Shown piece after piece: positions 1-37,704 of a stretch of DNA of 38,529 bases (the first letter of the stretch is position 1; each line of letters begins with the position of its first letter). Location of the stretch: IMG/VR virus record IMGVR_UViG_3300011422_000010, positions 1 to 38,529 of that record. One strand, given 5' to 3'. The notes beneath the pieces are model-generated. The model was not told the DNA's origin. It did not search any database and saw only the letters and a list, made by a program, of their open reading frames with translations. This DNA comes from a virus. Its lineage: Duplodnaviria > Caudoviricetes. Position numbers and translations under genes: made by a program.

Positions 1-72
1 ACCTACGACGAGGCCGGCCAGCACTGGGTCGTCCTCCAGGACCCCGAGGGCAACGAGTTCTGCCTGCACTGA
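1..72 (+). CDS. VOC/glyoxalase-like protein, C-terminal fragment (non-phage, host-like)
   Basis: Frame 1 reads TYDEAGQHWVVLQDPEGNEFCLH-stop; DPEGNEF is the typical VOC-family C-terminal motif. 5' end lies outside the window. Confidence 0.8.
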   Translation, partial: TYDEAGQHWVVLQDPEGNEFCLH

Positions 73-14038: not shown

Positions 14039-15604
14039 CTATGCGCCGGCCGCGCGGACGCCGGCCCGGAACTCCTGGAGCGCCACGCCCACGTCGATGA
14101 AGCCGCGGAGCGCGATGCCCAGAGTGTTGAAATCAGCCTCGGTCGTCTCGACCGTCGGCATGTAATTGCCGTTCAAGGCCACCACCTCGATGGTGGGCAG
14201 GTCGGCCGGGTTGGCGAGCAGGTACCAGGCGGTCGCGCTGTTGCCCGTGAAGGCGCCGTTGCTCATGTACGGCGAGCTGACCACCTCGTAGGCGCCGGCC
14301 AGTACGTTGCCCGACGGCGACAGCACGTTGGGAGCGGCCTGGGCCGTGTTGGTCGCCACCACGATCGTCGAGTTCATCAGGTTGAGCGCGGTGACGCGCA
14401 GGGCGGATGGGACCAGCAGGATCGCCGGGAAGATGCCCAGCGGCTGGCCGTCCGGGTCGGTCTGGAGCCGGAACACTTTGTCGGCTTCCGCCAGGGCGGT
14501 GAGCGACAGGGCCGACGTGCCGCCGGTCGTGACGTTGTTGTTGCCGGCGGTGAAGAAGGCGGAGTTGTTCAGGAACACAGTCCAGAACATCTCGTTGAGC
14601 CGGAGGGCGGCGCCGCGGCCGAGGCGCTGGCCGGCGGTCGTCAGGGCGCCCAGGTCGTCGTTGATCAGGTCCCGGCGGTCGATACCCAGCATGCGCGCCT
14701 GGGTGTCCGCCTGGTTGTTGTAAACGCGCTCGCCGATATCCCCGTGCTCGATCTCGCCGCCCGGCGGCAGCTTCTTGTAGATCAGCGAGCCGGTCAGGGA
14801 TGGCGTCGTGATCTGCTTGAAGTCGTTGACCGGGCGGGTGGCCGAGATCCGCTGCCAGGCGCTGTCGATCGCCATGAAGCCGACGCGCAGGAACTTGTTG
14901 GCGACGTTGGAGAGGATGTTGGGCAGCGAGTACGTCGACGGGCCGGACACGCCGGCGCGAATGTCGGTCATGAATGCGGAGCGGAGGGCGGCGTCCAGGT
15001 TGCCGCTCAGGCTCAGGCCGCGATAGCCGTTGCGATGGGCCGAGGTCAGGATCAGCTCGCCCAGGCCGAGGCCGTTTCGCCATTTCTTGCGGGCGGCTTC
15101 CAGCGTGCGGGCGTCAAAGTGCTTGTCGAGGTCGCGCAGGCCACCGGCCATGCACACGGCCGCTTCGACCACGTCGTTGGTGAGCTGGGTCGAGCGATCG
15201 ACGATGACGCCTGGGGCCCGGGGGCGCTCGCGGCGGATGAACTCCAGCTCGAGGCGATTGTCGTCCCAGCGGTCCGGGTCGGCGATGGCCTCGGCGCGGA
15301 TCTCTTCCACGGCGACCGCGCTGATGCGGCCGTCGTCCATGGCCCTGATCAGGGCGGCCTCGATGCGCTCCTCGTGCTCTTCCCGGATGCGCAGGGCCTG
15401 CAGCGTCTCCGTCATGCTCCGGGAGCCGGCCGGCCTGCGTTCAGCCGGCGGCGCCGGGGGAGCGGGCGGTGTCGCGGGAGGGCTCGCCGGGGGCGAGGCG
15501 GGCGTCTGCTCCGCCTTCCAGGCTGCCTGCAGGGCCGCCTTCTGGGTGTCGTTCAAGGCCGCGAGCTCGAAACCCTTGGCCACGAGCCATTGTTCGAAGG
15601 TCAT
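14039..15604 (-). CDS. Internally initiated scaffold-capsid product (521 aa)
   Basis: AAGGAG-TCTCGCCC-ATG in frame at 15604 (MTFEQWL), immediately after the protease domain. Confidence 0.65.
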   Translation of the reverse strand: MTFEQWLVAKGFELAALNDTQKAALQAAWKAEQTPASPPASPPATPPAPPAPPAERRPAGSRSMTETLQALRIREEHEERIEAALIRAMDDGRISAVAVEEIRAEAIADPDRWDDNRLELEFIRRERPRAPGVIVDRSTQLTNDVVEAAVCMAGGLRDLDKHFDARTLEAARKKWRNGLGLGELILTSAHRNGYRGLSLSGNLDAALRSAFMTDIRAGVSGPSTYSLPNILSNVANKFLRVGFMAIDSAWQRISATRPVNDFKQITTPSLTGSLIYKKLPPGGEIEHGDIGERVYNNQADTQARMLGIDRRDLINDDLGALTTAGQRLGRGAALRLNEMFWTVFLNNSAFFTAGNNNVTTGGTSALSLTALAEADKVFRLQTDPDGQPLGIFPAILLVPSALRVTALNLMNSTIVVATNTAQAAPNVLSPSGNVLAGAYEVVSSPYMSNGAFTGNSATAWYLLANPADLPTIEVVALNGNYMPTVETTEADFNTLGIALRGFIDVGVALQEFRAGVRAAGA

Positions 15605-17794
15605 GGGCGAGACTCCTTGTGCCAGGGGGCCCGTGGCGCCCAGCCCCGCCGCGACCGCGGCCGAGGTGTTGGGGTCGGCTCCCATCGGGACGAAACTGAC
15701 TTCACCCAGCGTGGTGGCGCGGGCGACGTAGATCGGGCCGCTGTAGGAGCGGCCGTTGACTTTCACGCTCTGATCGCGATCGACGAACTCCAGGCGTTCC
15801 ACGCTGGCCCCCACCGAGGCCTGCCAGGGGAAGCCGTTGTCGGCCAGGGCCCGCACTTCCTCGGCGGCATCCCCGACGCCGCTCATCACGCCGGCCACCT
15901 TCAGCCGCTGCTGGCTGATCTCGATGCTCTCGGTGTGGCCGACGATCAGACTCGCATCGTGATCGCGGAGAATGGGCCGCTGCTGCCCCGGGATGTTCAT
16001 GCCCTCGAGGTCCACCACGACGGGCCAGGCGAAGAAGGGGAGGCGCATGGCCACGCCGGTGTAGGCGGTCATGCGGAACTTGCGGAGGCGCTTGCTCTCG
16101 CCGTCGCCGGCCGCGGCCGCGAGAATCTCGAAGCCCTCACTGGCGCCGGTGATGGTGAAGCTGCTCGGCTCGCCGGCGGCGCGGAGGAATGCCGGGAGAT
16201 CGATCTCGGCGGGCCCGTGGCCATTGCGGTGGCCGTTGAGCCTATTCCGCGGCCGTGCCGCCTCGGCCTTCTCCTTGTCCCCTTGTCCGCTTGACTCTTC
16301 GTCGTCGTCCTCGGACGACGCCGGCTCGGTGGTCGCCGTACCTGTCATCGGCGGCACGCCCTCTTTTTCCATGAGTCGCAGCTCCCGCCCGCGCTGACGA
16401 ATGACTGCTTTCCAGTCCTGGCCGTACTCCGCGAGCAGCTCGGCCAGCGTGGTCGTGCAGTTGTTCAGGCGCTCGGTGTCCTGGCCGGCGGTGTCCTTGT
16501 CCATGCTCGGCCAGCCGGGCCAGTACCAGGCCTTCGGCAGGCGGGCGATGTCGATCTGCACGCCGGCCGGCAACCTGAGATAGCCCGGGAGCCGCTGCGC
16601 TTCCTTGGCCCAGGCGGCGTAGATGCGGTTCAAGACATTGCGATTGGCGAAGGCGCGATCGACCTTCAGGCCGCCGCGGTAGCCGAAATGATCGAGCTTG
16701 GCGCTCGAGAAGTTGTGCTGCGAGCTGTCGCCGGAGACGACGTTGGTCGGCATGCGCACCGGCCGGCCGCACTCGTTGAGGAGCTCGCGCTTGAAGGGGG
16801 TGAATTCCTTGGTCGGGTGCTCGGCCTTGAGCTGCGTGGCCTCGTAGCCGGCCGGCAGCATCGTCATCATGTTCCGCTCGATCTCGAGGGCATCGAACGG
16901 CTCGGGGGGCTCGACCTCGTCGGGGCTCGCCTCGCTCTTGATCAGGGCGGCGAAGCTGGCCGCCGTCTCCGCCGCACTCAGCGTCGCCAGCGTCCAGCGC
17001 CGCAGGTACGGGAAGAGCGCCAGGATCGCCGTCAGTTCGGGCACGCCGCGGAGCTGGCCGGGCCGATCGGCCCGGAACCAGTGGAGCACAAACGCCGCCG
17101 GCCAGACGTCCGCCTCGGCCTGGCCGAGGGCCTCGCTGGGGTGCTGCCGGAGGATCGTGTAGCTGACCGGGTTGCCGTAGGCGTCGTAGGTCGCGCCGTC
17201 GAGTTGCGTGTCGCTGCCAAAGCCGCCTTGCGGATCGGCGACCAGGTCCGCCTCGATCAGGCGGAGGTCGAGCTTCACGGCGTCATCGATCTTGGGGTTG
17301 GTGACCAGGAGCGCGAAGGCCTCGCCGTCGCGGTTCCGGGCCTGGTCCATGCAGTGGAGCTTCTCGGCCAGGCCGATCGCGTCCGCCCAGCGGGCAAACG
17401 CCTGCTCGACCGCCTCGTTGACGGCGTCATCGTCGGTGAGGACCTGCAAGGTCGGCCCGGTGCCGACCAGGTCGTCGGCCCGGCCGCGGACGATGCCGGC
17501 GCAATAGCCGCCGTTGTCGTACTCGTAGCGGCTCCGGTTGCGGAGCGTCTGCCGCACCGCGGCCGAGTTGGCGCTGGCGGCGGAGAGGCCGTCGGCGTTC
17601 GACCAGTGGCGGCGATTGTCTTCGTTGGTCTGGGCCGCGTCGTACTTGGCCTTCAGCGTCGCCATGCGCAGGCGCAGCACGCCATTGAGCCGTTCGAGCC
17701 GGCTCAGCGTTTGCGCCGGCGCGGACCGGGTTCGACCCCGCGCTGTGGATTTCCGGGAAGGCGCTGATCGGGTGCGTGGGCGGCGCTTGGCCAC
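14039..17794 (-). CDS. Fused lambda-family portal, prohead protease, scaffold and major capsid protein (Mu gpT-like)
   Basis: One 1251-aa ORF. Portal: RNRSRYE, RPGQLRGVP, NFSSAKLD. Acidic linker. Protease: AYTG, ILRDHD, VGH, GFPWQASVG, EVSFV. Capsid: ILSNVANKFL, VNDFK, LINDDLGAL, PAILLVP, WYLLANP. Confidence 0.9.
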   Translation of the reverse strand: MAKRRPRTRSAPSRKSTARGRTRSAPAQTLSRLERLNGVLRLRMATLKAKYDAAQTNEDNRRHWSNADGLSAASANSAAVRQTLRNRSRYEYDNGGYCAGIVRGRADDLVGTGPTLQVLTDDDAVNEAVEQAFARWADAIGLAEKLHCMDQARNRDGEAFALLVTNPKIDDAVKLDLRLIEADLVADPQGGFGSDTQLDGATYDAYGNPVSYTILRQHPSEALGQAEADVWPAAFVLHWFRADRPGQLRGVPELTAILALFPYLRRWTLATLSAAETAASFAALIKSEASPDEVEPPEPFDALEIERNMMTMLPAGYEATQLKAEHPTKEFTPFKRELLNECGRPVRMPTNVVSGDSSQHNFSSAKLDHFGYRGGLKVDRAFANRNVLNRIYAAWAKEAQRLPGYLRLPAGVQIDIARLPKAWYWPGWPSMDKDTAGQDTERLNNCTTTLAELLAEYGQDWKAVIRQRGRELRLMEKEGVPPMTGTATTEPASSEDDDEESSGQGDKEKAEAARPRNRLNGHRNGHGPAEIDLPAFLRAAGEPSSFTITGASEGFEILAAAAGDGESKRLRKFRMTAYTGVAMRLPFFAWPVVVDLEGMNIPGQQRPILRDHDASLIVGHTESIEISQQRLKVAGVMSGVGDAAEEVRALADNGFPWQASVGASVERLEFVDRDQSVKVNGRSYSGPIYVARATTLGEVSFVPMGADPNTSAAVAAGLGATGPLAQGVSPMTFEQWLVAKGFELAALNDTQKAALQAAWKAEQTPASPPASPPATPPAPPAPPAERRPAGSRSMTETLQALRIREEHEERIEAALIRAMDDGRISAVAVEEIRAEAIADPDRWDDNRLELEFIRRERPRAPGVIVDRSTQLTNDVVEAAVCMAGGLRDLDKHFDARTLEAARKKWRNGLGLGELILTSAHRNGYRGLSLSGNLDAALRSAFMTDIRAGVSGPSTYSLPNILSNVANKFLRVGFMAIDSAWQRISATRPVNDFKQITTPSLTGSLIYKKLPPGGEIEHGDIGERVYNNQADTQARMLGIDRRDLINDDLGALTTAGQRLGRGAALRLNEMFWTVFLNNSAFFTAGNNNVTTGGTSALSLTALAEADKVFRLQTDPDGQPLGIFPAILLVPSALRVTALNLMNSTIVVATNTAQAAPNVLSPSGNVLAGAYEVVSSPYMSNGAFTGNSATAWYLLANPADLPTIEVVALNGNYMPTVETTEADFNTLGIALRGFIDVGVALQEFRAGVRAAGA

Positions 17795-23955: not shown

Positions 23956-25164
23956 TTATTTGGAAAGCAAAGTTTCCGCGGCCGCGGCGTCGGCCGGGCC
24001 CGTATAGCGATAGGTCGAGATCGGCCGGCCGCCGAAGGTGGTCATGCCGCTGGCCGTGCGGGCCTGGGTGCCGACGTTGCGCCGGTGGCACACGCCGCGG
24101 CCGACCTCCTGCCAGTGCGCCGATCGGCGCAGCGTCCGGGCGAAATGGGCGGCCCCGGTCCCCAGGCGCAGTTCGAGGCCGGCGGCGCGATGAGCGGCGC
24201 CGAGGCGCTGTAGCAACATCATGCCCACGCCCAGGCCCTGCCAGTCGGGCAGCACCACGACGCGGTGCACGCGGCGGAGATCGTTTCGCCGCGCGTGCGG
24301 GAAGTTGAGGATCGCCGCGAACGCGACCGGCTGGCCGTCGATCGTCAGCACGAAGGCCCGGCACCCGGGCGACAGGTCCGCGCTCATGTAGTGGTGCAGC
24401 CGGAACAGGCGCCACACGGCACGGTCCGCCGCGTGGATCTCGCCGGCGAGCCGCGGCCGCGGGCCCGGAAGCCGCCACTCAAATCTCCACGGGCAGCCGG
24501 CGGCCGAGGGCGACGGCTCCCCGGCCTGGTCGAAAGGGCGCTGGCCGGCCGACCTCCGGATGAAGAGGAGCTCGCCGCCGCCGGGCTCCAGGATCCAGTC
24601 GGGCTGCAGCCAGTCGATGACGTCGTAATGACAGGTGACAGCGACAAAGCGTCGGCCGTTCTTGCGGACCCACTTCTGCACGGCGTGCGAACCGATCTTG
24701 GCGACCTGGCGATCGACGACCGAGGTGAACTCGTCGAGCACGATGGGTCGGTCCGCCGGCGTCTCCAGCAGCCGGCGGGCGATCTCGACGCGGAAGCGCT
24801 CGCCGTTCGACAGCACGCGGTAGGGCCGCATCCAGGCCGGCACCGTGTTGAAGCCGACCGCCTGGCACACCGCCGAGATCTCCTCCATCGACAGCCGCTG
24901 GTCAAAGTCGTCAACGACGCTCTTGCCGGTCCATTCGAGAGGCGGAGGCTCGCCCCAGACGTGCCGCATGACGCTCGACTTGCCCGAGCCCGACGGGCCC
25001 ACGATGAGGCCCACGCTCCAGGGCCTGGTCGGGTCATCGATGGGCAGCTCGCCGGCGAAGCGCAGTTTCGCCTTCTCCGCCGGCGGCACGTCGAACATGG
25101 CCGCGAGCTGCTTGACCCGCGCGGAGCGCGAGAGATCGGTTTCGAGGGCGAAGTCGATGTGCAT
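23956..25164 (-). CDS. ABC ATPase-GNAT acyltransferase fusion
   Basis: GPSGSGKS, LSNGE signature, VLDEF, TCH; then HHYMS and RVVVLPDWQGLGVG (acetyl-CoA-binding loop). No transmembrane partner. Confidence 0.88.
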   Translation of the reverse strand: MHIDFALETDLSRSARVKQLAAMFDVPPAEKAKLRFAGELPIDDPTRPWSVGLIVGPSGSGKSSVMRHVWGEPPPLEWTGKSVVDDFDQRLSMEEISAVCQAVGFNTVPAWMRPYRVLSNGERFRVEIARRLLETPADRPIVLDEFTSVVDRQVAKIGSHAVQKWVRKNGRRFVAVTCHYDVIDWLQPDWILEPGGGELLFIRRSAGQRPFDQAGEPSPSAAGCPWRFEWRLPGPRPRLAGEIHAADRAVWRLFRLHHYMSADLSPGCRAFVLTIDGQPVAFAAILNFPHARRNDLRRVHRVVVLPDWQGLGVGMMLLQRLGAAHRAAGLELRLGTGAAHFARTLRRSAHWQEVGRGVCHRRNVGTQARTASGMTTFGGRPISTYRYTGPADAAAAETLLSK

Positions 25165-27634: not shown

Positions 27635-29263
27635 CTAAGAAGCGCGCTGTTTCACGTTCTGACCTGAATGGATCTGCTCGGCCAGCGACTCGATCACCGT
27701 GATGAACGGCAGGTTGCCCGGGTATTCGTCCGCCGCCCGCTTGAGCGCCTCGCCATAGGCGAAGCCCCAGCCGTCGGGCTCCTTCACGGTCACATACTCG
27801 CGCTGCCTCTCCACCACCTGCGGCGGCGGCGGGCCCTCTCGATAGATGACGCGCGGCGGCGGCTCCGGGATCGGTTCCGGAAGGCGATAGGAAGCTGGTT
27901 GCGCCGGCGCTCCCGCAGATGGCGGCGCGCTCGACCCTGTCGCGCGCCGCTGACGCCGGCGCAACCATGCCCGCAAGGCGAACCCGCCCAGGGTGATCCC
28001 CAAGCCGACGGGCCCGCTGATCGATAGCCCCAGGATCGCCGGCAGCCGGCTGAGCCAGGGGCCTACGGCCTCGATGACCGGCAGCGCCTTGTCGATGCCC
28101 TGCCGGGCCTCCTGGGCGTCCCTCTTCGCGGCGGTCGCTTTCTCCGCCGCTTGATCCGCCTGCAGGCTGATGTTTGAAAGGTCGGGCGCGCGGCCCGGTT
28201 CCCCCGGCACGCCGGGCGGGCCGGGCGGTCCGACTGGGCCCGCAGGACCAGGTGGCCCCGCAATCAACTGCACGCCCTCTCTTGGCGCGGGCGAGCTCGG
28301 CGGCGTCGTCAGCGGCGGGATGCGCGTGCCGCCGGCGGCGGGCGGATTGCCTCGCCGCGGCCAGCACCAGGCGATCCACGTCTGCTGCAGCTCGGCCAGG
28401 CTCTGGTAACCGTAATAGCGCTGGGCAGCGGCCTCCCACTGGTCGCCCATGCCTTCGCCGACGAACTTCAGGAACGTCGCCCGATCGCGCTGCTCCACCA
28501 GGAAGCGCGTGAGGCTGTAGCCCTGCGCGTAGAGCACCGAGAGGTCGTTCGCGCCCTTCGGATAATCCCGCAGGCACATCACCGTGTGTACGCTGAACGA
28601 ATGGCCGGCCCGGAGCTGATCGAGGCACAGCTCGTCGTGGCGCCGGCGTTCCTGGTCATCCTCCGAGAGGACCGCGGCCCCCTCGTCGGCCCAGCGCGGC
28701 ACCGGCCGGCGGAACTTGTACGCCAGCACCGTATGCGTGATCTCGTGAGGCAGCACGCTCTGGAGAATGCGGTCGAGCGAACCCTGCACGCTCATGTCCT
28801 GCGACTGGATCGTCCCCGGCCCGAACGCAAACACCGTGGCGCCGCCGGCGCCGCCGGCGGTGATGGTCACTTTGAGCGGGCAGCGCACGCCCCAGGCCGG
28901 CATCTCCCGGCCCAGCCATTCCACGGCTTTCTCACGCCGCCATTTCTCCGCCCATTCCCCGACGGTCTTGGCCGCGGCCGCCGGGTCATTGGTCCCGCCG
29001 GCGACGTGGATGCTGAAGTTCTCGGTCTGTGCGTGGGCGCCGCCCCGGGTCGCCTGGCGGGGCTGCGACCAGCCGGCCGGCGTCCCCGGCGTCTGGCCGG
29101 CCATGCGCGGGAGGCCGCGAACTGCGGCCATGGTGGGACCTCACGTGCCCCCCGGGGGACAAGCGGGCCCGATCGGCGCGCTGGGAAGCACGCGACCGGG
29201 CCCAGGGTTGGGCATGGCGCAGCCACTCGCGAAGATCAGTAGCAGCGCGGCCACCAGCTTCAT
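27635..29263 (-). CDS. Putative lipoprotein selenoprotein: peptidase MA-like HExxH domain, collagen stretch, coiled coil and TM (in-frame UGA at codon 41)
   Basis: GGAGGT RBS, MKLVAALLLIFASGC signal, CPPGGT-UGA-GPT in frame with 27635..29131; PHEITH...WADEG; GPP repeats; TM followed by RRRQRR. Confidence 0.65.
29113..29129 (-). promoter_or_regulatory. Candidate bacterial SECIS element
   Basis: GGCCGC-AGTTC-GCGGCC, 17 nt, beginning 11 nt after the UGA. Confidence 0.55.
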
Positions 29264-30606: not shown

Positions 30607-31011
30607 CTAGTCGGCGTGGTCCGGGCGGCGGATGAGACGGGCGAAGGTCCAGTCGGCCAGCTCCGCGCGCGTCCCCTGGGCGGCGCATTTGCACGCGGCC
30701 TCGAGGGCCCGCACCGCCGGCGTGTCGTCCGCCGGCACGATGCCGACGATCGGCCCCTCGACGGCCTCGATGACGTCGAGCAGCGTGATCCGCTCCGGCG
30801 CCCGCCGCAGTCGATAGCCGCCGTTGGGCCCGCTGGTGCTGCGCAGGATGCCGGCCGCCACCAGCCGCTTCAGGCCCTTCATCATGGTGCGGGGGGGGAT
30901 GCCGCCGGCGGCCTTGCCCAGAGTGGCGGACGAGCAGGCCCGGCTGGGCGAGGTGCTCGCCAGGTGGAACACGGCGAGGGCGCAGTTGGTGGCCATCGAG
31001 CCGGGCTTCAT
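30607..31011 (-). CDS. Rrf2-family transcriptional regulator
   Basis: LKRLVAAGILRSTSGPNGGYRL...ITLLDVIEAVEG. Confidence 0.88.
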   Translation of the reverse strand: MKPGSMATNCALAVFHLASTSPSRACSSATLGKAAGGIPPRTMMKGLKRLVAAGILRSTSGPNGGYRLRRAPERITLLDVIEAVEGPIVGIVPADDTPAVRALEAACKCAAQGTRAELADWTFARLIRRPDHAD

Positions 31012-31022
31012 GCAGGGGGGCC

Positions 31023-32579
31023 TCAGTCCTCCAGGATCCGGACCTTGGCCGCCGGGGCCTTCTGGTACTTCTGCCCCTTGCCCGAGCCCTCGATGAGCAG
31101 GTAGCCGTCGGTCGCAAACGACCGGCAGAAGTTGGAGACGGAGGGCATGGCGATGCTGGCCCCGCGCCGGCGCAGCTCCATGAAAGCGGCATTGGCCGGC
31201 ATCGGCTGATCGAAGAAGCCCTCGGCGATCAGTTGGGCGAAACGCCCCTGCGGGGTGTCGCCCTTGATCTCCAGCACCTTGCGCTCGACGCGCACCTGCA
31301 GCTCCGGCTGGGACAGGACGATGCGGATCACCTCGGGGTCCTTGGGCAGCTCCTGGATGAGCCGCCTCTTGATGGCCTGGTAGAGCTTCTCCAGGTCGCC
31401 GGTGTCGCTCGCCGGGTGGCCGTTCGGGTAGGGAGGGTCCCGCGGATCCGCGGGCGGAACCGCGGCGGGCTTGCTGTTGCTGCTGCGGAGCCCGTCCAGG
31501 GTTTCTTCAAGAGCCCGGATGCGTTGCTTGAGTTGTTGATTCTCGGCCCGCAGGGCCTCGGCCTGTTCGCTCGTCACTGCATTGCTCCTCTCCGCGGCCG
31601 TGGGCCGCTTGACTCGATCGACACTGAGTTCCCCCAGCGCGATCCGTCGTGCCTCATCAGCCGGCATCCAGGCCGGCTGCACGTAGACCTTGACCGTGCG
31701 GTCCTTCCAGCACGCGTAGAACTGGCCGCGCTCCAGCTCGGCGATCTGGCCGGGCTTGGGCCGCTTGATGTTGGCGGGGATGTTGGCCAGGTTCCGCCGG
31801 ATCTCATTAGCCTCGCGCTGCACGCCGATCAGCCACACCGTGCAGCCGCGGAGGATCACCTTGTCGACGCCGGCCATGTCCTGGGAATCGACCCAGATGA
31901 AGTTGCCGATACCGGCGCCCTTGCGGACCAGCTCGACGGCGCCGGCCTTCACTGGCGAGTTCTTGCCCTCGGGCACGAACTCCCAGGCCTCCGGGACGAC
32001 GGTCACCACGCCGTGCTCGCGCTCGTTGACCCAGTCGATCGCCGAGCGCACGAAGAGCATCTGCATGGCCGCCTGGTAGCCGCTGACGTCCATGACGTTC
32101 AGCCCCGGCCGCAGGCTTACCCCTGCGGCGAGCGGCGTCCGGCCGATCTCGGGCACGATCAGCTCGAGGTAGGCGTCGAGCTGGGTATAGACCCCTTCGT
32201 TGATGCCCTTCGCTTTCACGAGCGCCTTGCGGACCTCCTGGTGGACCTCGGCCAGCGTGCGCGTCGTCCGGCAGATCTTCATAATCCACGGCCGCAGGAA
32301 CTTATTCTTCTCCTGCAGGGTGGCGTCGATGATCGAGGTCACAAACTGCCAGTCGGCGCGATCGCGGAAGTAGGGCGCCAGGCGGTTGCCGCCGGCGAAG
32401 CTGGCCTCGCCCCGCTTGGTGACGAACGCGATCGCCGGCACTCCCGCGCGATAAACGAGGGCCTCCAGCGTCGTGGTCTTGCCACTCTCCTGGGTCTGGC
32501 CCGTGACGGCTAGGTGCTTGAGCGGGATCTCGACGGGCTCGCCGGTGTCGACTTCGAAGCCGAGGTGGAGCGTGGTCAT
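31023..32579 (-). CDS. HerA/FtsK-like P-loop ATPase with coiled coil and C-terminal wHTH-like region
   Basis: HLAVTGQTQESGKTT, VVPEAWEF, RKG, DSQ...VDK. Confidence 0.75.
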   Translation of the reverse strand: MTTLHLGFEVDTGEPVEIPLKHLAVTGQTQESGKTTTLEALVYRAGVPAIAFVTKRGEASFAGGNRLAPYFRDRADWQFVTSIIDATLQEKNKFLRPWIMKICRTTRTLAEVHQEVRKALVKAKGINEGVYTQLDAYLELIVPEIGRTPLAAGVSLRPGLNVMDVSGYQAAMQMLFVRSAIDWVNEREHGVVTVVPEAWEFVPEGKNSPVKAGAVELVRKGAGIGNFIWVDSQDMAGVDKVILRGCTVWLIGVQREANEIRRNLANIPANIKRPKPGQIAELERGQFYACWKDRTVKVYVQPAWMPADEARRIALGELSVDRVKRPTAAERSNAVTSEQAEALRAENQQLKQRIRALEETLDGLRSSNSKPAAVPPADPRDPPYPNGHPASDTGDLEKLYQAIKRRLIQELPKDPEVIRIVLSQPELQVRVERKVLEIKGDTPQGRFAQLIAEGFFDQPMPANAAFMELRRRGASIAMPSVSNFCRSFATDGYLLIEGSGKGQKYQKAPAAKVRILED

Positions 32580-32779
32580 GGGCGCGCGCCCTCCTCGGTC
32601 TGGGGTCGAAAGCCCTTCGCAGCACCTGCCTTCAACAGTTCCTCGCAGCGCTCGACGTCAACGTCCGGCCCGCCGGTCACCAGGCCGTACTTGCGGGCCG
32701 AATCCACCTGCAGCCAGATCTCGGCCAGGTTCACGGCCTCCTGCCATTCGGCATCGGTCTGTGGCATGCGGCGCTTCAC
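32576..32779 (-). CDS. Hypothetical protein
   Basis: 67 aa; 4-bp overlaps with both neighbours. Confidence 0.65.
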   Translation of the reverse strand: MKRRMPQTDAEWQEAVNLAEIWLQVDSARKYGLVTGGPDVDVERCEELLKAGAAKGFRPQTEEGARP

Positions 32780-33519
32780 GCGCGGGCCTCCGGTGGAAAG
32801 GTCTGCACGTAGCGGCGCTCCAGCTCGCGCCAGACGCCGTCGCTGCCTTCGCGGAGCAGCAGCTCGTAGACCTGGTCGGCGTCCGACGAGCTATCCGGGT
32901 AGCAGGGCTGGCCCTCGGTGTATTCACAGACAACCAGATCCCCGTACTGGGCCGGCTCGATGATGGGCCCCGTGACGGGATCGACGCCGAGCCAGCGGGG
33001 CCCGCAGACCCTCTGCCGGCTGGGCTCGTGGCCCTCCCACAAGGGGCGTGTGCTGTGGATCTGCACACAGTGCAGCGGCAAGAACGTGCTCCTGATCTCG
33101 GACTCGTCGAAGAGCAGCTCGGCCGAGAGCACTGCGTCGGTCACGGCGGGCAGCATCCAGTTGGTGAAGAGGATGAACACCACAGCGCCCTCGGGGCCCT
33201 TGAGGGCCATGTGCAGATCGACGCCGTGGATGCCGAAGTTCTTGCTCGGGTCCGCATCCCGGCGATCGAACGCGGGCGTCAGCTCGATGGACCGTACCAA
33301 CGTCATGGGCCTCGCCGCGGCGTGCACCTGGTCGATCCACCGACGCAAGTTCCGCAGCTCGATCCGGGCCTGCCGGATCTGCTCCTCGTATTGCCGTTGC
33401 AACGGCTTCCAGCCCCGGCCGTCTTCGACCAGGACGTCGAGCAAGAGGTCCAGCTCGCGCACGTGCCGATAGCCGCGCTGGACCAGGTCCCGGAGGCGTA
33501 AGCTGGCCAGTCCGGTCAT
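32776..33519 (-). CDS. Phage hypothetical protein
   Basis: Start at MTGLAS via ATGA overlap; KNFGIHGVD...KGPEGAV segment. A second possible start at MTLVRS. Confidence 0.65.
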   Translation of the reverse strand: MTGLASLRLRDLVQRGYRHVRELDLLLDVLVEDGRGWKPLQRQYEEQIRQARIELRNLRRWIDQVHAAARPMTLVRSIELTPAFDRRDADPSKNFGIHGVDLHMALKGPEGAVVFILFTNWMLPAVTDAVLSAELLFDESEIRSTFLPLHCVQIHSTRPLWEGHEPSRQRVCGPRWLGVDPVTGPIIEPAQYGDLVVCEYTEGQPCYPDSSSDADQVYELLLREGSDGVWRELERRYVQTFPPEARA

Positions 33520-33794
33520 GGCGCCACATACTCCTTCGCCGCGTCCCCGGCGGGCCGGCGGCGTCCGGTATCTGGATGCCGCGACCAGCCGGGCGGTTCG
33601 GGCTCGGTCTCTGGGTCCCAGGCCAGCATGGCGGCGACCGCCACCTCGGGCGAATCGTATCACCACACCGCGTTGTAGCCCCACGCGTCGCCGGCGGGGC
33701 CGATGCCCAGTCGGGCCCGGTCGCCGAATAACGGCAGGATCTCGATCGCGCGGCCGTCGTCGAGATGGCGGCGGGCTATCACTCCGTTGGGCAT
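33516..33794 (-). CDS. Putative 92-aa selenoprotein, absent from the ORF track (W-UGA-Y)
   Basis: MPNGVIARRHLDDGRAIEILPLFGDRARLGIGPAGDAWGYNAVW-UGA-YDSPEVAVAAMLAWDPETEPEPPGWSRHPDTGRRRPAGDAAKEYVAP; GGAGAG RBS; stop overlaps the next ATG. Confidence 0.7.
33630..33645 (-). promoter_or_regulatory. Candidate bacterial SECIS element
   Basis: GGTGGC-GGTC-GCCGCC beginning 14 nt after the UGA. Confidence 0.6.
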
Positions 33795-33976
33795 GGCAGC
33801 TCTCCCATCTCCCGCAAGGCCCACGTCGTCAGCTCGATCGTGTTTTGCAGGAACTCCGCTTCGCTCGTCGCGCCAATCATGGGCACACCGGCCCTTCTGC
33901 AGATCGCATTGGCCCGGATGCCGGATAGGACGATCGCGGCCACGCTGAGCTTGTGTTCTTCCTTGGCATCAGGCAC
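33779..33976 (-). CDS. Hypothetical protein
   Basis: 65 aa; overlaps both neighbours. Confidence 0.55.
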   Translation of the reverse strand: MPDAKEEHKLSVAAIVLSGIRANAICRRAGVPMIGATSEAEFLQNTIELTTWALREMGELPCPTE

Positions 33977-34614: not shown

Positions 34615-34892
34615 CGTTCCTCCGCTGCTTTGGCGATGGCGTAATCGACGACATCCGCCAGGCCCATCGGGTTCTTGTCCAGTGGCCGACTGCGGAGCCA
34701 TGCCTGGACCTGCTTGCACGCGTCCAGCAGATCATCGTGACAGTCGACCGCCTTGACGATGAGGGCGGCGTTGGCAAGCGCGATCATAGTGTTTCGCGGC
34801 CGCGCCTGTCGGCAGACCGCGACCGGCTGATTATCGGAGCCCATGACGTGGGTCCCATCCCGTCGCCACGGCCGCGCGGTCGCTTTGCTCAT
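34608..34892 (-). CDS. Phage hypothetical protein (T-x-x-PW...ANAALI family)
   Basis: MSKATARPW...ANAALIVKAVDCHDDLLDAC...AIAKA; ATGA overlap. Confidence 0.7.
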   Translation of the reverse strand: MSKATARPWRRDGTHVMGSDNQPVAVCRQARPRNTMIALANAALIVKAVDCHDDLLDACKQVQAWLRSRPLDKNPMGLADVVDYAIAKAAEERW

Positions 34893-37285
34893 GCGTCGTC
34901 CTCCGCGTCGCTGTGATCCCAATCGATCTCCGGGTGCGCCTTCCGCAGCTTGGCCCGGGCCGACTTGCCGCGCGAGGAGGCGGTTGCCGGGTTCTTGTCC
35001 TTGGCCTCCTTCTTCGCGGCCTGCTTCGCCGCCTTGCGCTCGGCGACCAGGTCGGTCTTGGCCCGCTTCTCGAACGCCTTCCACTCGACGCCGGCGAACG
35101 CGAGGATCTTGTCCTCGACGCCCTTCACGTGGCTCCAGTGGCCGTGGGTGATGAAGTCGGTCGCGTGCAGGTCGAAGATCAGCGCCAGGAGCTGCGGCAT
35201 CGTCGCTGTGGCGATCCACTCCTGCCACGGCTTGAACTCCGCGCGGTGGCCTTCGCGCGCGCTGCCCTGAATGCCCCAGCGCTTCGCGAGCGCTTCCGCG
35301 TCCCCGCCCATGTCCAACTCGCGGGCCGTGGCGACCTCGGCCAGGAGCTGCAGGAACTGCTGGGACTTCTTGTCGAGCACGATGGCCAGGCACTTCGTGG
35401 CCGCCAGCCCCGCCTGCACGAGCGCCAGCGCGGCGTTATGTTCCGCCCGCTTCCGGATCTCGAAACGATCGGGCGCCGCCTTGGCCGGCTTCGGTTGCGC
35501 GCGCGTGGCCGCGCCCTTCTTGCTCCGCAGCTTACGCATAGCGCTCTTGGCCTGGGCTGTCGGCGCCAAGAGCCGCACCTGGCCGCTCGGGTCGAAGGCC
35601 CGCACGGTCAGCTCCGCGGCCGCCTCGCCGAGGGCCTCCCGGTAGGTCACGGAGCGGCCGCCGTGCCACTCCGTGTCGCTCAGCTCGACGTAGCCGCTGT
35701 CATACTTCAGGCGGCCGTGCTCGAAGAGCTTCTTGGCCTGGTTGGGGGCGAGCACCTTCTTGCCCTCTTCCTGCAGCCGGGCGCGGGCCCGCTCCTCATG
35801 GGCCTCGACCTTCTGGCGGAAACAACCAGGGTCGGTGCAGATGTCGGCCCGTGAGCCGGGGTAGAGGTCTTTGGCGTTGCCGGTCCGCTTGGGGCAAGAG
35901 GTACAGGCGCCCGCAACAGGCAAGAGCTCGGCGTCGTCGCGGCTGAAAGGCGCCTGCTTGAGCTCGACCATGTAGTCGGATTCGATGAACGCCTTGGCCG
36001 TGCGTAGCGCCATCGGCCCCTTGTCGAAGTGGTAATAGCGGCCCACCCGACCCTGGAAATTGCCCCCCTTGATGATGCGCGACGCGGCCTCGGCGCGCAG
36101 CTTGTCGGCGGGGATCCGGGCGATCAGCTCCGCGGTGCTGGCGGGGATCGTGCCGTCGGCGAGCGCCTTCCGGGCCGGCTCGGGCAGCCCGGTGAGCTTG
36201 AGCCGCGCGTACACGTAGGTCTTGGCCTTACCGATCTTCTTCGCGAGGTCCTCGATGGTCAGGCCGTGCTCGTCGAGCAGCTTGCGGTAGTGGGCCGCCT
36301 CCTCCAGCGGGGAGATGCCGGAGCGCTGCAGGAAGGTGACGAGCTGGATCTCCAGGACCTGGAGGTCGGCCAGCTCGCGCACCACCACCGGCAGCCGGCC
36401 GAGCTCGGCGAGCTTGGCGGCCCGGTAGCGCTTCTCGCCATCCACGATCTCGTAGGCCTCGCTGCCCGGCTTGAGCTTCTCCGCCGCCAGGAGGGCTGCG
36501 GGGGCGGGCCGCACCACCAGGGGCACGATCACCCCTTTGGCCCGGATGCTCTCGGAGAGCTCGGCGACCTCGGTCTCGTCGAAGTGCTTCCGCGGATTGG
36601 TGGGCGACGGGATGAGCTTTTCCAGCGGCACGAGCGGGCGATACGCTTCCTCGGCTGCCTGCTGGGCTTGCTGGAACGCGGCCCCCCCCGGCGTCGATGT
36701 GGAGGTGAGGCAGGGTGGCGTCGCGCCATTCGCGACCGGTGCCGAGGCCGGTTGCTTTGCTTGGGCCCGCGAAGTGGGGAGCTCGGGCAGTCGGGCGGCG
36801 AGCCGGCCGTCGTGGTCGGCGAGCGGGTCCCCTTCGTCCGTGCGCTGAAGCTGCTCAAGCACGAAGTGACCGACCCGCCAGATAGCGTCCTCGAGCTGCG
36901 AGTCAGTGATGACGTCGAGCTTCTTGACCGCGCGGACGCGGCCCCAGGCGGCGTAGGCGTCGCGGGCATCGCCCAGGAGGGCGCCCACGCAGCGGAAGCC
37001 GCACTCCTCGAAGGCTTCGAGCACCTTGGCCGCCAGGCCCACCCGCTTGAGCGGCGCCTCGATCAAGGGCAGGCAGGCGCTGCAGAGGTCCGACTTCACC
37101 CAGTGGCACGGCTCGCCCGTACGCTCGACGCAGAGCATGCAGTCGCCGTTCGTGCACCGGCACACCCGACAGCGATCGCCGCGGACCGCCTTGGCGCCAT
37201 GGGACTGGTTGCGCCGCCCGGCCATCTCGGCCGCGGCCGCCTCGACGCCGGCCCGCCGGCTGCGTTTCATGGTTCCGCTGGACAT
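34889..37285 (-). CDS. Multidomain ParB/RepB/Spo0J-family protein
   Basis: NPRKHFD...LSESIRAKGVIVPLVVRP...YEIVDGEKRYRAA, HTH, CTSCPKRTG...CTDPGCF; Cys-rich N-terminal extension. Confidence 0.85.
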   Translation of the reverse strand: MSSGTMKRSRRAGVEAAAAEMAGRRNQSHGAKAVRGDRCRVCRCTNGDCMLCVERTGEPCHWVKSDLCSACLPLIEAPLKRVGLAAKVLEAFEECGFRCVGALLGDARDAYAAWGRVRAVKKLDVITDSQLEDAIWRVGHFVLEQLQRTDEGDPLADHDGRLAARLPELPTSRAQAKQPASAPVANGATPPCLTSTSTPGGAAFQQAQQAAEEAYRPLVPLEKLIPSPTNPRKHFDETEVAELSESIRAKGVIVPLVVRPAPAALLAAEKLKPGSEAYEIVDGEKRYRAAKLAELGRLPVVVRELADLQVLEIQLVTFLQRSGISPLEEAAHYRKLLDEHGLTIEDLAKKIGKAKTYVYARLKLTGLPEPARKALADGTIPASTAELIARIPADKLRAEAASRIIKGGNFQGRVGRYYHFDKGPMALRTAKAFIESDYMVELKQAPFSRDDAELLPVAGACTSCPKRTGNAKDLYPGSRADICTDPGCFRQKVEAHEERARARLQEEGKKVLAPNQAKKLFEHGRLKYDSGYVELSDTEWHGGRSVTYREALGEAAAELTVRAFDPSGQVRLLAPTAQAKSAMRKLRSKKGAATRAQPKPAKAAPDRFEIRKRAEHNAALALVQAGLAATKCLAIVLDKKSQQFLQLLAEVATARELDMGGDAEALAKRWGIQGSAREGHRAEFKPWQEWIATATMPQLLALIFDLHATDFITHGHWSHVKGVEDKILAFAGVEWKAFEKRAKTDLVAERKAAKQAAKKEAKDKNPATASSRGKSARAKLRKAHPEIDWDHSDAEDDA

Positions 37286-37704
37286 GGTGGGTCCTCGTGA
37301 AAGCGTTTGTAGTGGCCGCAGTAGCGGTTGGCCACGTCGTTCGGATTCCAGCTCGTGAGGCCGCAGACGAGGCACTCTATGCCCGGGCCGTGGCTGGCCT
37401 CACGTAACACGTAGGTCGGCTCCGGAGGGAGCTCGTCGAGTTCGCCGACGGGGTGATAGTGCACCTGCTGGTCGGTGATCTCGATCGCTTCCCGGATCCC
37501 CCGACGGCTGTCGATACAGGCGTCGCACAGGACCGCGACAGCTCGGCCTTCGTCGCCGCTGATCACGTTGCCGCTGACGGGGTACTTCCACGTCGCCCGA
37601 CGGTTGAGGGCGCACAGGTTCACGCGGCCGATCTTGCCGCCACAGGCCCCACAACGAACGTGGGCCTGGATGAACTCGACGTAGTTGTCCCTGGTCGCGC
37701 TCAT
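37267..37704 (-). CDS. Zinc-finger hypothetical protein
   Basis: MSATRD start; CGAC, CDAC, CLVC...YCGH. Confidence 0.7.
   Translation of the reverse strand: MSATRDNYVEFIQAHVRCGACGGKIGRVNLCALNRRATWKYPVSGNVISGDEGRAVAVLCDACIDSRRGIREAIEITDQQVHYHPVGELDELPPEPTYVLREASHGPGIECLVCGLTSWNPNDVANRYCGHYKRFHEDPPCPAEP

Follow-up and report, generated by a model that had tools for sequence, protein, structure and literature searches.

A bacteriophage gene family with an in-frame UGA and a co-varying bacterial-type SECIS hairpin very probably encodes selenoproteins

The window (the whole stretch of DNA analysed here) is a 38.5-kb virus record of 68% GC that carries tailed-phage genes, with profile matches to a portal-protease-capsid fusion, a terminase and a tape measure protein. 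The locus under study lies on its minus strand and comprises the following features:

33779..33976, minus strand: 65-aa ORF on the upstream side, with its stop codon 16 nt into the 92-codon gene
33802..33806, minus strand: Shine-Dalgarno-like GGGAG, 7 nt before the ATG of the 92-codon gene
33516..33794, minus strand: candidate selenoprotein gene of 92 codons (ATG...TGA), from a family without a Pfam, PHROG or NCBIfam model
33660..33662, minus strand: in-frame UGA at codon 45, the predicted selenocysteine (Sec) codon; Cys in aligned homologues
33630..33645, minus strand: predicted bacterial-type SECIS hairpin, +18..+33 with the U of the UGA as 1
33531..33620, minus strand: C-terminal conserved motif, W59..P67-x-G-W-x-R-H-P-x-T-G-R-R-R-x-x-G-D..E88, 3' of the UGA
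32776..33519, minus strand: downstream 247-aa ORF, whose ATG overlaps the stop of the 92-codon gene (ATGA, 33519-33516)

A first-pass annotation had described a 92-codon frame that fills a gap in the operon and is interrupted solely by the UGA at 33662-33660. The frame does contain only one internal TGA (local sequence GYNAVW-U-YDSPE), has its own ribosome-binding site and ATG, and overlaps the next ATG with its stop as proposed. The gap, however, is not empty; it also holds the end of the 65-aa ORF and a second open frame, a 302-aa ORF from GTG 33684 that overlaps the 3' half of the gene. We discount this ORF as a rival gene because its overlapping part has a non-coding score of -0.45, where the 5' and 3' halves of the Sec frame reach 0.24 and 0.04, and 55/55 of its homologues align from residue 119-131 only, past the overlap. 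Coding-type codon usage, claimed for both halves, is weaker in the 3' half (score 0.04, GC3 0.81) than in five clear genes (0.30-0.43). The C-terminal ~175 aa of the downstream 247-aa ORF belong to a common uncharacterised family.

Other minus-strand genes of the window include a 1251-aa ORF (14039-17794) matching portal, head maturation protease and major head families, a triple fusion, and a 402-aa gene by the terminase (23956-25164) with ABC-ATPase-like and acetyltransferase-like matches (phrog_11143, 293, 7693). An Rrf2/IscR-family regulator (30607-31011; Pfam 1.3e-19) lies ~2.5 kb downstream of the candidate gene, and its best named match is a Thermodesulfovibrionales MAG (41%). Homologues of an 828-aa ParB-domain protein (34889-37375) and a 518-aa ATPase-like protein (31023-32579) flank the family gene in locus L085, which has the Cys form.

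The TGA of the window gene is not an assembly slip, since contigs of six of the eight runs (X1, X2, X3, X4, X7, X8) bridge the codon with zero letter differences; the comparison used contigs only, at a depth of 2-8, the runs possibly come from one sampling campaign, and X1 and X2 may be the source runs. Run X5 lacks cover at the TGA, and the contig of X6 stops at the codon.

The gene belongs to a family (1,508 clusters at 50% identity) of which standard gene calling truncates or misses about half. Members occur in 17 GenBank phage records and in ESM Atlas clusters that are unnamed and mostly viral, and a GTDB scan returned just four loci; judged by these sequences, the family is found mostly in phages. 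Searches of PHROGs, NCBIfam (E<=1) and Pfam (E<=0.1) gave no family match, the latter two run on five proteins (0/5 matched). The W-C-Y and EPxGWxRHPxTGRRR motif that the first-pass annotation ascribed to related phage proteins is real. Among 156 database proteins W70, R78 and R80 are invariant (156/156), followed by P67 (155) and W59, G83 and E88 (154 each). Position 45 is C in 77 of these proteins, D in 27, E in 18, Q in 9, Y in 8 and another residue in 17.

Because TGA forms are invisible in protein databases, we compared the DNA of the loci. The 182 scored loci (viral, metagenome and genome loci, the window included and some duplicates among them) have TGA at the column in 94 cases, a Cys codon in 74, TAG in 1, another codon in 13 and Trp in none; L001 and L002 (24-aa weak matches), L006 (own copy) and L182, L189 and L191 (gap at the column) had been dropped. 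The alignment used for the later scans was rich in TGA-type genes and may have inflated the TGA share, so the share in the first viral scan, which relied on a pattern downstream of the codon, is less biased (72 loci: TGA 34, Cys 27, TAG 1, other 10). The proposal of a Cys-to-Sec variant is borne out to the extent that the aligned codon is usually Cys or TGA, with Cys the commonest sense residue; the column is not strictly Cys/Sec, as D, E, Q and Y also occur. Like a bacterial selenoprotein gene, the gene has a UGA aligned to Cys with homology on both sides, the UGA is kept in independent sequences, and UGA still serves as a stop elsewhere in the genome.

These data bear on two explanations that dispense with Sec. 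The first, a pseudogene, nonsense mutation or assembly error, draws on the one-letter step from TGC to TGA and on the low codon score of the 3' half. Yet the same codon recurs in 68 divergent groups (82 TGA genes grouped at 70% identity), of 15,469 matched codons 95 are internal stops, every one of them in the Sec column, the contigs of the runs agree across the codon, and the downstream half, in which decay had been named as a warning sign, carries the invariant residues and shows no decay. This explanation is refuted for the family, and we regard it as very improbable. The second, a reassigned UGA (table 4 or 25) in the phages or their hosts, would account for in-frame TGA in 94/182 loci, but the window gene has four TGG codons and itself ends on TGA, and TGA is found at no other column. 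The terminal stop is TGA in 49/85 distinct TGA genes and in 14/23 of the window's long high-GC3 frames, which argues that UGA is not reassigned genome-wide; this stop usage refutes the reassigned code and leaves it next to no probability.

At a few loci codon and downstream sequence part company. In L059 (1495-1728) the column holds TTA, GCGGTC is retained and the stem is broken; its sister on the tree is the TGA gene L064, and Sec was probably lost here recently. The loci L085 and L162 retain GCGGTC although the codon is Cys or Asp.

The hairpin of the window begins 14 nt past the UGA and has a stem GGUGGC/GCCGCC (18-23/28-33) and a GGUC loop at +24..27 (33639-33636), which places the loop 20 nt from the UGA. 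Nucleotides +17..34 alone fold into this GGUC hairpin at -11.3 kcal/mol, and short folds taken alone give stems of 6-7 bp at -9.8 to -11.3 kcal/mol. Against shuffled sequences there is no stability excess (z -0.71 to +0.21 in 5/5 folds), and in longer context the minimum-energy register slides to a UCG loop, with a pairing probability of ~0.1 for the GGUC register (45 nt). The stem-loop reported by the first-pass annotation is thus present where it was placed, but is not exceptional by itself, and a slid register is favoured. Since the window fold is unremarkable, it is the family that supplies the support for the hairpin. The apex of the E. coli fdhF SECIS element is likewise GGUC.

Across the family the loop goes with the codon. 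GGUC occupies +24..27 in 56/85 TGA genes vs 1/67 Cys genes, and GU occupies +25-26 in 80/85 vs 7/67. A strict test (five of six pairs plus GU) is passed by 63/82 TGA genes and 0/66 Cys genes; several of the 19/82 TGA genes that fail have variant 5-nt loops. A loose version of the bSECIS consensus is passed by 44/52 TGA vs 17/53 Cys genes. Over the 52 aligned TGA genes, pairing in the stem 16-23/28-35 reaches 77.2% of cells, vs 63.0+/-1.5 in shuffled alignments (0/500), and double changes number 67 vs 25.4, where the shuffles ignore the relatedness of the sequences. Its covariation score is 0.407 vs <=0.209 for slid stems, and RNAalifold recovers the same helix. Of the 52 TGA genes, 37 have a Watson-Crick pair at 21:30 and 39 at 18:33, both of which link third codon positions (shuffled 14.5 and 21.7); the 53 Cys genes show no enrichment (22 vs 16.8 and 14 vs 15.8). 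Compensatory changes thus support the structure, and the covariation among UGA-bearing homologues that the first-pass annotation called for is seen in TGA genes only. The geometry of the hairpin conforms to the bSECIS consensus as set out in the parts of PMC13188914 available to us.

On trees (a quick tree and FastTree) for which the columns of the codon and the hairpin had been masked, TGA and Cys forms cluster and 10-11 TGA/Cys changes are needed. An independent-pairs test found one independent TGA/Cys pair on strongly supported branches, so the trees give no demonstration that the link between TGA and hairpin arose repeatedly and independently. A covariance model found no second UGA-SECIS gene besides the family gene in the window or in G005, the genome of a 63-kb phage described below.

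Hairpin-stimulated read-through exists in viruses, and a third explanation is that a near-cognate Trp, Cys or Arg tRNA reads the UGA in this manner and no Sec is inserted. The tolerance of the column for substitutions would suit it. It is poorly reconciled with the absence of Trp from the column (0/182 loci, 0/156 proteins) and with a loop that bears the G-U read by SelB at the bSECIS distance. The base right after the UGA is, moreover, U in 52/52 aligned genes, and UGA-U is a strong termination context in E. coli. We consider such read-through improbable.

Given the observed codon, its conservation, the hairpin and the co-variation of the hairpin, we conclude that this is very probably a phage selenoprotein family whose UGA is read by host SelB. 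By analogy with E. coli fdhF, host SelB would bind the GU within the GGUC loop, 20 nt past the UGA, and bring Sec-tRNA to that codon; the product would then most likely be a 92-residue selenoprotein made with host SelB and tRNA-Sec. UGA at a Cys column, combined with a co-varying hairpin, implies that production of a selenium-containing protein with host machinery is likely in many phages.

One actinobacteriophage carries a different stop. In L023, on the 63-kb phage G005, the Sec column holds TAG (1624-1626; gene G005:C1, about 28190-28447, minus strand), and the hairpin is intact, with 7 bp, GGUC, -12.0 kcal/mol and 37.9 bits with the family model. The phage encodes WhiB and an actinophage-like terminase, has 70-74% GC, and ends most of its genes on TGA. 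Geodermatophilaceae decode Sec at UAG, according to the text available for PMC5330540. L023 is a candidate UAG-Sec gene matching that code in its TAG and intact hairpin; it differs in that its host is not tied to Geodermatophilaceae, and as a single contig it could still reflect a nonsense change. Pattern scans for further TAG or TAA members led back to the L023 contig only (1/7 and 1/1), with family members in 0/8 cases for TAA.

The window contains no tRNA and no Rfam match, so the Sec machinery would be that of the host. Comparisons of the terminase and Rrf2 genes gave no informative match to a host of the window phage. We searched for SelA, SelB and tRNA-Sec in four genomes that carry family loci, which are other than that of the window phage. 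Two of the three MAGs with the TGA form have all three components: G001 (Thermomicrobiales), with a UCA tRNA-Sec, and G003 (Gemmatimonadetes). The hairpin of the Sec-FdhA gene of G001 also has a GGUC apex, at +22..25. In G002, a proteobacterial MAG with the G003 locus again (same sequence around the codon), none of the three rose above the cut-off, where binning is uncertain and the genomes are incomplete. SelA, SelB and tRNA-Sec are all absent from G004 (Agromyces humi, Cys form), and no other carrier of the family gene was found among 201 genomes of its family. Cultured phages of Caulobacter, Brevundimonas and Sinorhizobium (3/17 records examined) all have the Cys form, and a C. vibrioides control gave no SelA match. 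The pattern of host Sec machinery is thus consistent with the TGA/Cys split on these genome sequences, but thin. L080 and L081 are one locus, found on contigs of ~83 kb that were assigned to two MAGs from different phyla, which suggests a mis-binned viral contig.

With Cys put at position 45, AlphaFold2 gives a confident model (pLDDT 92.9, pTM 0.83), with strands at 7-10, 15-21, 27-33 and 42-46, a helix at 49-58 and a loop-rich tail in which the invariant residues sit. The predicted protein consists of a four-stranded sheet and a helix; Sec45 lies on strand four, immediately ahead of the helix, and the basic motif follows. No structural relative emerged: a PDB sequence search gave one chance match (E 0.73), Foldseek against PDB and BFVD had no match at E<=0.001, and in the comparison with AcrIF1- and MmoD-like small proteins Foldseek gave E 0.57 and the best Z of VIA-align (5.7; 6d7k_H, rmsd 3.5, 60 aligned) lies within background, as does that of AcrF1 (Z 4.4, rmsd 3.3, 69 aligned); a missing structural match is no proof of a new fold. 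ESM Atlas matches (0.91-0.92) were to unnamed phage clusters only. Eleven longer family members contain no informative fused domain, and no conserved gene neighbourhood was found. The commonest neighbour family, with a VSTxFLGLDH...LWETxIFGG...RY motif, occurs in 17/182 loci (near L096 and 16 others); by eye, the C-terminal part of P0102 resembles this family, fused to the domain.

Cys is absent from 61/93 TGA-gene domains and from the window protein, which argues against a CxxU redox enzyme. Neither the β4-α1 arrangement of the model nor the lack of a family match places the protein among the thioredoxin-fold or CxxU/UxxC selenoproteins. Because the column takes D, E, Q and Y besides C, an essential catalytic role for Sec is improbable. 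The best reading of its function, still tentative and rather doubtful, is a small accessory protein encoded among the non-structural genes of the phage. Its basic, invariant W/R/H/E motif may recognise a host ligand that is acidic or carries phosphate, and the residue at position 45 (Sec, Cys, Asp, Glu, Gln, His) would be an exchangeable nucleophile or metal ligand, and not the partner of a redox motif.

It is also conceivable that the Sec-decoded UGA and SECIS are kept mainly as a switch, such that the protein and ATGA-coupled translation of the next gene arise only when Sec-tRNA is available and selenium chemistry is secondary. The tolerance of residue 45 for D, E, Q, Y and H and the frequent lack of a Cys partner agree with such a role, but stop-start overlaps are not enriched in TGA genes (44/91) relative to Cys genes (39/73), no neighbour is conserved, and Cys remains the commonest sense residue. 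A switch is compatible with Sec decoding, but we think it unlikely to be the main reason for the UGA. A broader reading, plausible though a little short of an even chance, holds that these selenoproteins are native to phages, descend from no cellular ancestor, lack a redox motif, and extend through dozens of phage lineages and across several host phyla. The codon would then follow the host: UGA with SECIS in Sec hosts, Cys, Asp or Glu elsewhere, and UAG with SECIS where tRNA-Sec reads UAG.

The phage family offers a small, easily expressed candidate with cultured Cys-form counterparts and makes phage selenoproteins testable. It may also serve as a host marker, the TGA form implying a Sec host and the TAG form pointing to Geodermatophilaceae-like hosts. 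A Sec site exchangeable with Asp, Glu or Gln would be unusual among selenoproteins.

The molluscum contagiosum virus protein MC066L and fowlpox GPx4 are the only proven viral selenoproteins in a 2019 review, as far as its available text goes (PMC6769590). In those cases, as proposed here, the selenoprotein gene is viral and the Sec machinery comes from the host; the poxvirus proteins, however, are host-derived glutathione peroxidases with eukaryote-type SECIS elements, whereas the element here is of bacterial type. Phage tRNA-Sec has been reported, according to the accessible portion of PMC6145125. The words phage, virus and viral are absent from the main texts, as available, of a 2026 prokaryotic review (PMC13188914), BSepDB and deep-Sep, and our literature search, which included UAG-Sec and covered main texts and, for the most part, freely accessible papers, found no phage selenoprotein. 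In the available part of Table 1 of PMC13188914, which catalogues 119 families, no entry can be recognised as this family, as scanned with NCBIfam and Pfam models; a few rows there are defined by CDD or PANTHER models instead.

Cys-form hypothetical proteins of cultured phages are Caulobacter phage CcrBL9 gp257c (AXQ69281.1), Brevundimonas phage Kabachok_01010 (USN13937.1) and Sinorhizobium phage Phosso gp736 (XYS97833.1), family members at 35-40% identity with W/Y-C-Y/F at the column; they differ in having a TGC codon and no GGUC loop at +24-27, and their function is unannotated. With bacterial genes that carry a bSECIS within the ORF, such as E. coli fdhF, the family shares the in-frame UGA aligned to Cys, a 4-nt loop starting with GG 20 nt from the UGA, a 6-7 bp stem and, with the FdhA gene of a MAG carrying the family, the GGUC apex. 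It departs from them in being phage-encoded, in lacking CxxU/UxxC, in a model that is not thioredoxin-like, and in the replacement of Sec/Cys by D, E, Q, Y or H. The UGA/bSECIS signal is that of a known bacterial system; the phage carrier and the protein are new.
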